Positions 51,114-51,744 of a DNA stretch of 64,000 nt are shown here, piece after piece; positions within the stretch are counted from its first letter, which is position 1, and each line of letters begins with the position of its first letter. Below the pieces are notes generated by a model. The model was given only the letters and a program-made list of their open reading frames with translations, was not told the DNA's origin and did not search any database. A program made the translations under genes and the position numbers. This stretch comes from Escherichia phage WPEC6, in sequence record PV763039.1; one strand, written 5' to 3'.

Positions 51114-51372
51114 TAGAGAATGACGCGCAGGGGCGGTGTTTGTCTCGCGCTCCCGTGTCCCCTCGCCATGTAATAAGAATAACAGATCCAGCCAGGAAAG
51201 CAAGTGATTATTTTATCTTTACATTTCTTTACAAATATATAGCGCCCAGCCTACCGGCGATCAACCTTCCAACCAGTGCCCCTGGTATGTTAGCCCCGCC
51301 TTTACGCCGTGGGGTGGCGCTTCCTCTTCTGTATGTAAAACAGTATAAGCCCGATCCCTGGGCTTGTCAAGA

Positions 51373-51636
51373 TTATTTTTTGTTTTCTTGCCAGGATAGG
51401 ACACCTAACCAAAAATACATATCGCCCCGCGCCCCTGGTGGTATCTTGCTTTCCCCGCCGCCACTGCAAGCCCATAAATAACCATCAGCGAACGGATCAA
51501 AATTTTCTATCTCTTCCACCTTATGATCGCCCAGGTTGAGAACGGTTTCAACCTTTAAACCCGTTGCGCTCGCTACCTGGTGCACCGTGCCGCCTTGCCA
51601 GCCTAACGAGTGCATAAGATGTAATGTAGTAATCAT
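51373..51636 (-). CDS. Hypothetical protein in GC-rich island
   Basis: 87-aa ORF with AAAGAAAGGG RBS; local GC content clearly above the rest of the window; overlapping + ORF 51140..51481 is Pro-rich and judged spurious. Confidence 0.4.
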   Translation of the reverse strand: MITTLHLMHSLGWQGGTVHQVASATGLKVETVLNLGDHKVEEIENFDPFADGYLWACSGGGESKIPPGARGDMYFWLGVLSWQENKK

Positions 51637-51744
51637 GGTGTCGCCCTTTCTTTGTTGTGCGCCCTGGTTGGCGCGGTAGAAAGATAATAGCCCTTTCCTT
51701 TATATATAGCAAGCAAAAAGAAAAATAAAAAGATTAAAAAGTGG

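Follow-up and report, generated by a model that had tools for sequence, protein, structure and literature searches.

A GC-rich island at positions 51120–51700 of a 64,000-nucleotide (nt) stretch of the Escherichia phage WPEC6 genome (record PV763039.1; the whole stretch is called the window below) contains a small RNA element, RNA-1, that folds as a pseudoknot followed by a bulged hairpin, and this fold is kept by compensatory changes. The island is a compact – strand unit comprising an 87-residue open reading frame (ORF87), a terminator-like hairpin within promoter P1, RNA-1, a CpxR-type box, promoter P2, a GC stem-loop, and Fur-box-like palindromes (Table 1), an anatomy that we read from an alignment of 37 sequences. 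An earlier note, made from the DNA sequence alone, had proposed that about 250 bp of this island without a credible ORF might be a structured RNA or a fragment acquired from the host. The ORF-free part (51120–51372) does contain a structured RNA, as judged by covariation, and the + strand ORF that enters it (51140..51481) matches no PHROG or Pfam family and is broken by indels in relatives.

RNA-1 structure

The proposed structure of RNA-1 has three helices. In S1, CGCC (51319–51316) pairs with GGCG (51308–51305), and in S2, CCC from the S1 loop (51313–51311) pairs with GGG (51296–51294). S2 crosses S1, creating an H-type pseudoknot whose third loop is A-rich. A hairpin, H3 (51289–51270), follows, which has a bulged nucleotide and a loop that is variable or GNRA-like. 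The last conserved segment is an invariant 18-nt tail, AAGGUNNAUCGCCGGUAG (AAGGUUGAUCGCCGGUAG), at 51268–51251, which is single-stranded in the proposed structure.

This fold was examined in three successively larger alignments. Among 35 sequences, 90.8% of cells were paired, and covariation was 0.175 compared to 0.068 in shuffled alignments (0/500 reached the real value). With Aeromonas phages included (38 sequences), 94.7% of cells were paired, 9 of 15 pairs had changed on both sides, and covariation rose to 0.259 (0.085 shuffled). A covariance model built from the 38-sequence alignment scored the window copy at 94.5 bits (E 6e-31) and, once metagenomic contigs were added, recovered 65 RNA-1 copies, 56 of them distinct. 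In an alignment of these 56 sequences, which was fitted to the nested structure only, with the pseudoknot pairs outside the covariance model, 94.6% of cells were paired, 9 of 13 pairs showed compensatory change, and covariation was 0.281, compared to 0.085 in shuffles (0/500) and at most 0.070 when pairing partners were slid. Changes on both sides of a pair were found in 69 cells of this alignment, compared to 15.6 in shuffles. A weak match of the model at 9978–10061 of the window lies within an ORF of 1110 residues and was discarded as a false positive.

The Aeromonas sequences are informative in detail. Their S1 is GGAC/GUCU or GCC/GGC, S2 is CCA(A)/(U)UGG, H3 is GAU-A-CUU-GCAA-AAG-AUC, and the tail is unchanged. 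The change of S1 from CGCC/GGCG to GGAC/GUCU retains this helix and breaks an alternative pairing with the invariant tail; a long-range pairing of GGCG with CGCC in the tail was rejected on these grounds, as the Aeromonas GUCU is compensated solely in its local partner. A closing helix proposed by RNAalifold, GGCUA/UAGCU, was also set aside because sequence variation gave it no support. Hairpin loops vary in length among homologues and the stems are kept. In two Aeromonas phages (loci L026 and L068), about 50 nt are inserted in which three small hairpins can be drawn by eye; this insertion is compatible with the structure because it is placed in a loop, the third of the pseudoknot, and it leaves S1 and S2 undisturbed. 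One viral contig (L017) holds two RNA-1 copies about 700 bp apart, at 6295–6385 and 7033–7129, one of which is strongly diverged and retains the architecture of pseudoknot plus hairpin.

Promoter, strand, and gene status

By sequence, P1 is a near-consensus σ70 promoter that is conserved among the homologues: in all 37, a site with at least 9 of 12 promoter matches occurs at the same place, where the –35 TTG and positions A2 and T6 of the –10 hexamer are retained and the GC-rich spacer varies. Transcription from P1 is predicted to start near 51335.

Several observations favor the – strand as the sense strand of RNA-1. P1 points in this direction, and the few wobble (G·U) cells in the alignment would be A·C mismatches on the + strand. 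The Aeromonas RNA, moreover, has its own promoter (TTGCTT-17-TATAAT); behind the RNA, a GC hairpin (GCCAGC...GCUGGC) precedes a U-rich run, and by eye we take the two together for an intrinsic terminator. This RNA occupies a gap of 310 bp whose flanking genes are both on the opposite strand. In every annotated relative, RNA-1 is directed against the flow of the flanking genes. The Aeromonas RNA-1 stands alone as a gene, equipped with a promoter and a predicted terminator hairpin.

The strand assignment also accounts for a compositional feature that the earlier note had seen correctly, a + strand rich in C-tracts, without recognizing that the sense strand is the opposite one. The + strand of the island has 16 runs of at least three C, the highest count in the window (mean 3.6, standard deviation 2.1), and just 3 G-runs, with a GC skew of –0.145. 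This asymmetry arises because all functional parts are read from the – strand and their products are G-rich.

Distribution among phages

A sensitive blastn search with the 581-nt island found homologues in at least 234 phage records. In distant records (Mydovirus, Certrevirus, Seunavirus, Henunavirus, and other Vequintavirinae), the match was confined to positions 97–220 or 1–256 of the query. The noncoding part shares 73–83% DNA identity with Vequintavirinae, and the ORF87 part of the query is unmatched at the DNA level. As gauged by these matches, the ORF-free part is the most conserved DNA of its neighborhood. Where distant records are annotated, the element falls in an unannotated gap or beneath short calls that misfit the sequence.

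Still more distant RNA-1 homologues came from a pattern scan of IMG/VR and proved to belong to Plateaulakevirus, a genus of Aeromonas phages (2L372D, 4L372D, 4L372XY, and PAc); 26 further loci from a scan with the reverse-complement pattern were chance matches within coding regions. Pectobacterium phage PhiTE (locus L014) carries RNA-1 as well. By sequence comparison, the phage lineages that carry RNA-1 number at least three.

In a search of 185,579 species genomes, the only match was a 4-kb contig of a metagenome-assembled genome (MAG), JAEZZU010000352.1 ('MAG: Proteobacteria bacterium OH_PFB_59'). This contig carries the phage element over its full length (nhmmer, 290.7 bits) and an ORF87 homologue with 95% protein identity, and it is probably phage DNA that was binned into the MAG. 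Other records also deserve a comment. Four entries labeled 'Campylobacter phage' (B15, A110a, A145, and A150; MG065650, MG065689, MG065645, and MG065639) are 91–96% identical to E. coli phapecoctaviruses over the island, and their host label looks doubtful. The record of Klebsiella phage vB_Kpn_K23PH08C2 (OY757067.1) lists nine tRNA features and pseudo 'HNH endonuclease' coding sequences around the element, a tRNA-cluster context that we rejected, as ARAGORN finds 0 tRNAs in those 2.5 kb; its feature table seems to be displaced relative to the sequence.

Elements downstream of RNA-1

Between RNA-1 and P2 lies an exact copy of GTAAA(N)5GTAAA, the CpxR-P consensus as cited in PMC9603713. It is the single match in the window, where 0.32 would be expected, and is not significant alone. 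The GTAAA-N5-GTAAA sequence occurs at the same place in 27 of 37 homologues and is degenerate or absent in the other 10. In most homologues, 5 nt separate the box from the P2 –35 hexamer; in the Phapecoctavirus clade, an insertion of 9 or 10 nt, about one helical turn, shifts the box upstream. P2 itself is weak in the window. In most relatives among the 37 sequences, it is stronger (TTGCAA-17-TATATT), and the conserved alignment columns at this site are CTTG and TAT..T.

The GC stem-loop downstream of P2, RNA-2, folds in nearly every homologue. In its outer stem, one-sided changes from G-C to G·U favor the – strand, for which 87.5% of cells pair, over the + strand (74%). RNAalifold found no consensus in the RNA-2 alignment. 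Next comes an AU-rich hairpin, for which pairing in the second module copy of locus L039 is kept through G·U on the – strand only.

Fur-box-like sites are overrepresented in the window (7 compared to 0.43 expected; 0 of 100 shuffles attain 7). Four form the array at the left edge of the island, and others are found at 62934, 63747, and 63926. The last palindrome of the array (51095–51113), which hardly varies between phage subfamilies, forms the left boundary of the conserved module; within it, 51097–51111 has 1 mismatch to the Fur 7-1-7 core, TGATAATnATTATCA. The earlier note had placed 'Fur-like operators' next to the island and did not recognize that they are part of the same conserved module. 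Arrays with 29-bp spacing also occur in Cronobacter phage CR9, Pectobacterium phage CB7, Klebsiella phage phi1_175008, and Aeromonas phage 2L372D (7941 and 7970 in locus L059). In 2L372D, the boxes are preceded by a purine-rich transcript and a separate promoter, TTGCAC-17-TATACT. Because the box sequence is the same across very distant phages, a conserved host protein, Fur, is a better candidate for its ligand than is a phage protein.

A Fur box usually overlaps a promoter. The boxes studied here are downstream of both P1 and P2, a position that suggests a roadblock or 3'-end function for these putative Fur sites. No conserved, convincing + strand promoter overlapped by the boxes was found; a –10-like GAAT, for example, is GAAC in the Aeromonas phage.

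Second copies of the combination of promoter, GC stem-loop, and Fur-like box were found in five loci (L015, 4969–5090; L007, 4308–4418; L039, 1172–1301; L050, 4012–4129; L033, 5439–5535). Their distance from the main copy ranges between a few hundred bp and ~9 kb and is ~7 kb in Mydovirus-like genomes; in three of the five loci, they have the opposite orientation. The part of the module that adjoins the boxes is therefore an independent, duplicable unit.

Table 1. Features of the island and its edges, in – strand order, with positions numbered along the window.
Feature	Position	Strand	Description
Divergent promoter-like site	51745..51773	+	TTGACG-17-TAATAT; hexamer match
ORF87 promoter-like site	51684..51712	–	TTGCTA-17-TATTAT; hexamer match
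ORF87, 87 residues	51373..51636	–	PHROG 19316; conserved N-terminal motif LMxALGWQGGTVHQVAxATGL
Promoter P1 (predicted)	51342..51370	–	TTGACA-17-TATACT; σ70, 11/12 matches
GC hairpin, terminator-like for ORF87	51347..51365	–	AAGCCC-AGGGAUC-GGGCUU, then AUACUGUUUU; within P1 spacer
RNA-1 core, ~90 nt	51244..51335	–	Covariance model, pairing counts
CpxR-type box (putative)	51218..51232	–	GTAAAGAAATGTAAA; perfect match to GTAAA(N)5GTAAA, upstream of P2
Promoter P2 (predicted)	51176..51203	–	–35 TTGCTT 51203..51198, 16-nt spacer, –10 TATTCT 51181..51176
GC stem-loop RNA-2	51120..51171	–	Outer stem AUGGCG/CGUCAU; conserved apical segment GAGACAAACACC
AU-rich hairpin	51102..51124	–	UCAUUCUC/GAGAAUGA; 9 pairs, weak U tail; overlaps last box; candidate 3' end
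Four 19-bp Fur-box-like palindromes	51008..51113 (starts 51008, 51037, 51066, 51095)	.	AATGAKAATNATTMTCATT; exact 29-bp spacing

Possible functions of RNA-1

We favor a model, to which we assign a probability of roughly 0.55, in which RNA-1 is an early, trans-acting structured RNA with its tail as the recognition surface, and in which CpxR and Fur inputs are layered on the locus in enterobacterial phages. Host RNA polymerase would transcribe RNA-1 from P1 immediately on infection. The folded 5' part would stabilize the RNA and present the single-stranded tail, AAGGUNNAUCGCCGGUAG, as its working surface, and the target, common to hosts from Aeromonas through Escherichia, might be a protein or else an RNA with which the tail base-pairs. 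In the enterobacterial phages, envelope stress of the host could tune the output of the locus via CpxR-P at P2, and iron status could do so through Fur, which, when bound to the downstream palindromes, would block or end transcription.

Several results weigh against this model. The single-sequence fold of RNA-1 is no stabler than those of shuffled sequences (z –0.9), although such z-scores are uninformative. Past RNA-1, the enterobacterial phages have no good intrinsic terminator; the sole candidate in the window is the weak AU hairpin ~240 nt downstream. We found no transcript data or transcriptome for these phages in the literature searched, and the 5' and 3' ends of RNA-1 and its expression are, for this reason, predictions. 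With respect to a target, the 64-kb window contains no second site complementary to the tail. Pairing of the tail with the 3' end of 16S rRNA (AGGU-N-GAUC) is contradicted by phage PAc, which has GGUUAAUC, with UA at the variable positions; more broadly, 16S pairing or mimicry of helix 45, considered with the E. coli sequence, fits most variants, fails in PAc and in divergent hairpins, and is not claimed. For RNA-2, 85.7% of stem cells pair compared to 85.6% in shuffles, and its structure is only suggestive because covariation shows no excess over shuffles. Finally, CpxR and Fur were assigned solely by consensus match, and both sites are putative.

The main rival, which we regard as unlikely, is that the module is the core of a transcription-activated replication origin, at which the P1/P2 transcript would serve as an R-loop, as a primer, or to open AT-rich DNA. 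Two promoters with the same direction are conserved and aim at four palindromes spaced by 29 bp, beyond which lies DNA of 22–31% GC (50750–51100, within a 400-bp AT-rich stretch); the transcript is G-rich and its template C-rich, as seen in the 16 C-runs of the + strand; on the – strand, no ORF lies downstream, and the gene that comes next is convergent; the DNA is unusually well conserved; and the order of promoter, purine-rich RNA, pair of boxes 29 bp apart, and AT-rich DNA recurs in 2L372D. The architecture suits this model well. However, the compensatory changes reveal selection for an RNA fold, which mere transcription or an R-loop would not need, and the Aeromonas RNA-1, ~2 kb away from the box module, is followed by a predicted terminator hairpin of its own. 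Some genomes have a second box module, the site has no GC-skew switch, and the boxes keep one sequence across distant phages, which suits Fur better than a fast-evolving phage initiator. The same conserved fold bears on a proposal to which we give a rather lower chance, namely that the – strand unit is a cis-acting antisense or transcription-interference insulator between two blocks of + strand genes. P1 is a strong promoter, and RNA-1 opposes the flanking genes in all annotated relatives, the Aeromonas phages among them, both of which favor this proposal; but interference requires no conserved pseudoknot, covarying hairpin, or invariant 18-nt tail, and the upstream + strand block already ends at a hairpin, a putative terminator in phAPEC8, ~50 nt past its last gene, which encodes a NADAR-domain protein.

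Conservation purely at the DNA level, with no RNA product of consequence, as in a cluster of binding sites for Fur, CpxR, and other proteins that might titrate Fur or organize the genome, would explain why the palindromes and the GTAAA repeat are close to invariant and why further Fur-like boxes occur elsewhere in the window. We consider it very unlikely, as paired columns change together (the 69 both-sided cells described above) and hairpin loops differ in length around retained stems, which is not predicted for sites bound by proteins on double-stranded DNA. That the 250 bp encode a + strand protein (phAPEC8 gp257, 113 residues) is scarcely credible: the ORF is uninterrupted in the window and several records annotate it, but it matches no PHROG or Pfam family, the alignment of relatives contains interrupting indels of 1, 2, 5, and 9–10 nt, the ORF overlaps ORF87, for which substitutions follow the ORF87 frame, and the region is unannotated in distant relatives. 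Least probable of all, to the point of being negligible, is recent capture of the island from a bacterial host, the other proposal of the earlier note, which had recommended BLASTN searches of host genomes. The GC content of the RNA region and the GC content and third-position GC (GC3) of ORF87 are well above the phage average, as such a capture could produce, but high GC is also expected of a folded RNA within an AT-rich genome. Moreover, blastn with a word size of 11 found no match to the island in 5,426 complete E. coli genomes, the lone hit among the species genomes is the contaminant-like MAG contig, and the element is spread across three phage lineages.

Relation to known RNAs and regulatory systems

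Judged by sequence, RNA-1 is a new family of RNA: Rfam lacks it, and we found no description of the element in the literature searched. Phage-encoded small RNAs as such are known. The whole window had no match to Rfam 15 at gathering thresholds. When E values up to 10 were allowed for 50400–52200, matches were at chance level (at most 22.5 bits, compared to thresholds of 43–134), and none fell in 51130–51580. ARAGORN found no tRNA or tmRNA genes in the window.

Pectobacterium phage PhiTE offers the closest precedent in spirit, pseudo-ToxI, an RNA decoy that imitates the pseudoknot antitoxin ToxI (PMC3594212). Like RNA-1, pseudo-ToxI is noncoding and forms a pseudoknot, and PhiTE, a member of the Vequintavirinae, carries both; pseudo-ToxI shows that such phages use small folded RNAs against host systems. 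The two share no sequence similarity, however, and ToxI consists of 36-nt tandem repeats, whereas RNA-1 is single-copy and has no known ToxN-like partner. Neither PhiTE locus L014 nor the window contains a match with 3 or fewer mismatches to a 21-nt ToxI segment, and identity with pseudo-ToxI is not supported.

Fur-repressed small RNAs (sRNAs) such as RyhB and PrrF resemble RNA-1 in that small RNA genes are coupled to Fur-box-like sequence. RyhB-type boxes, however, lie over the –35 and –10 elements, whereas the phage boxes form a 29-bp-spaced array downstream of the promoters; RNA-1 occurs without adjacent boxes in Aeromonas phages, and no Rfam iron-responsive sRNA was matched even at E values up to 10. 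P2 resembles promoters activated by CpxR-P (PMC9603713) in having an exact consensus match just upstream of the –35 hexamer, and the insertion of 9 or 10 nt in one clade would roughly preserve helical phase. It differs in that its putative box is encoded by a lytic phage and is degenerate or missing in the 10 homologues mentioned above.

Transcription-dependent origins are the relevant comparison for the replication model. Examples are T7, with φ1.1A/B and an AT-rich region; the λ origin, with four 19-bp dyad iterons; and T4 oriF and oriG. With its tandem promoters and G-rich transcript, and with four regularly spaced dyad repeats of 19 bp next to AT-rich DNA, the phage module has a similar appearance, and ColE1 RNA II can be likened to it under the same model. 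Here, by contrast, the RNA fold is selected, a predicted terminator in some phages lies away from the repeats, and the repeats resemble host Fur sites. The leader of T4 gene 32 mRNA has a small H-type pseudoknot near its 5' end followed by an A/U-rich unstructured stretch. RNA-1 shares this arrangement of a 5'-proximal pseudoknot and an unstructured stretch but is not followed by an ORF, and it shows no sequence similarity to the leader and no Rfam match.

ORF87 and the surrounding DNA

ORF87, which the earlier note had judged plausible, is a genuine gene. The PHROG 19316 profile, a family with no assigned function, matches it with an E value of 5.6e-57 (residues 3–87 aligned to positions 4–88 of 88), and substitutions among close relatives fall at codon positions 1, 2, and 3 in a ratio of 63:0:123. 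Homologues were found by tblastn in 151 phage records, with identity down to 38–43% in Klebsiella phages, and a search of 5.8 billion proteins yielded 25 clusters, mostly of 84–93 residues. Conservation is concentrated in the N-terminal 35 residues. The domain is also part of a 140-residue protein at the same position in Certrevirus phages CB7 and PhiTE and was not found in Mydovirus at the corresponding comparison. An AlphaFold2 model has five helices and a predicted local distance difference test score (pLDDT) of 94.9. Fold searches with this model found no relatives and gave no similarity to helix-turn-helix proteins, leaving a role as a helix-turn-helix regulator unsupported.

The note had also suggested a codon-usage comparison, which marks ORF87 as a compositional outlier (GC 0.487 and GC3 0.494, compared to 0.395 and 0.334 in long ORFs), and had pointed to divergent promoter-like sequence at this gene. 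Such sites are present in both directions (Table 1). The + strand site falls within a 77-nt module (family D13) that recurs in the downstream array and corresponds to a PHIRE promoter annotated in phAPEC8. At the other end of the gene, the terminator-like hairpin with its U-run starts 8 nt past the stop codon. By eye, the P1 spacers of relatives contain GC-rich inverted repeats of differing sequence; RNAalifold found no supported consensus helix across them.

The source of the window is a phAPEC8-like phage (Phapecoctavirus). The segment 50500–51802 is 100% identical to Escherichia phages WPEC1, WPEC2, and WPEC4 and 96–97% identical to phAPEC8, ESCO5, and many other members of Phapecoctavirus (Stephanstirmvirinae). 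Sliding-window analysis confirmed that the island is GC-richer than the rest of the window: its GC content is 0.499, compared to a mean of 0.394 (standard deviation 0.0265) for 581-nt stretches, a value attained by only 0.016% of them, and the highest of all (0.501) is at 51118–51698, nearly coincident with the island.

On its 5' side, the island adjoins a block of + strand genes, which includes a 486-residue protein with five CapR-homology repeats (48017..49477) and ends with the NADAR-domain protein (180 residues; 50025..50567). The hairpin past the NADAR gene, AGGCTCCTACAGCACCGTAGAGAGCCT (50624–50650), is annotated as a putative terminator in phAPEC8; T-runs follow it on both strands, and it may terminate transcription both ways. 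The DNA at 50750–51000, which bears on the replication-origin hypothesis, is very AT-rich (22–25% GC) and has several + strand promoter-like sites and two similar segments of ~45 nt, acaaaagtgaaagttgaaaaccaaaatttaaagttt... and tacaaaaatgaaagtacaaaagcaaaatttaaagttt....

Just past the other side of the island, at ~51725, a repetitive cassette array begins and extends to 58421. It consists of about ten kinds of ~77-nt modules (75–81 nt) that are reused many times in both orientations. Synteny with other phapecoctaviruses ends at 51802, and matching places number 25–29 per genome in WPEC1, WPEC2, and WPEC4 compared to 4–6 in relatives. The largest default k-mer of the SPAdes assembler is 77; because the module size equals this value, an assembly artifact has to be excluded before the array is interpreted. 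Farther on, 62800–64000 is a long A/C-rich and seemingly noncoding stretch with aacaacaaac-type repeats, several of the Fur-like boxes, and promoter-like sequences.

Significance

To our knowledge, conservation across subfamilies is rare among phage small RNAs, and folds backed by covariation are rarer still. Hundreds of sequenced phages, relatives of rV5, phAPEC8, phi92, and PhiTE, carry RNA-1, and many of these phages are candidates for phage therapy. In public records, the RNA-1 locus has no feature in some cases and short hypothetical-protein calls such as phAPEC8 gp257 in others. Our comparisons indicate that these calls are spurious, and + strand ORFs of the gp257 type should be removed from annotations.

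The invariance of the 18-nt tail points to a target that is common to Aeromonas and enterobacteria. More tentatively, RNA-1 could be an undescribed family of phage regulatory or decoy RNAs that, in enterobacterial phages, is wired to CpxR and Fur, allowing a lytic phage to sense the state of its host and to adjust an RNA effector or origin firing accordingly. The CpxR-type and Fur-type sites suggest that lytic phages may sense both envelope stress and iron stress of the host.

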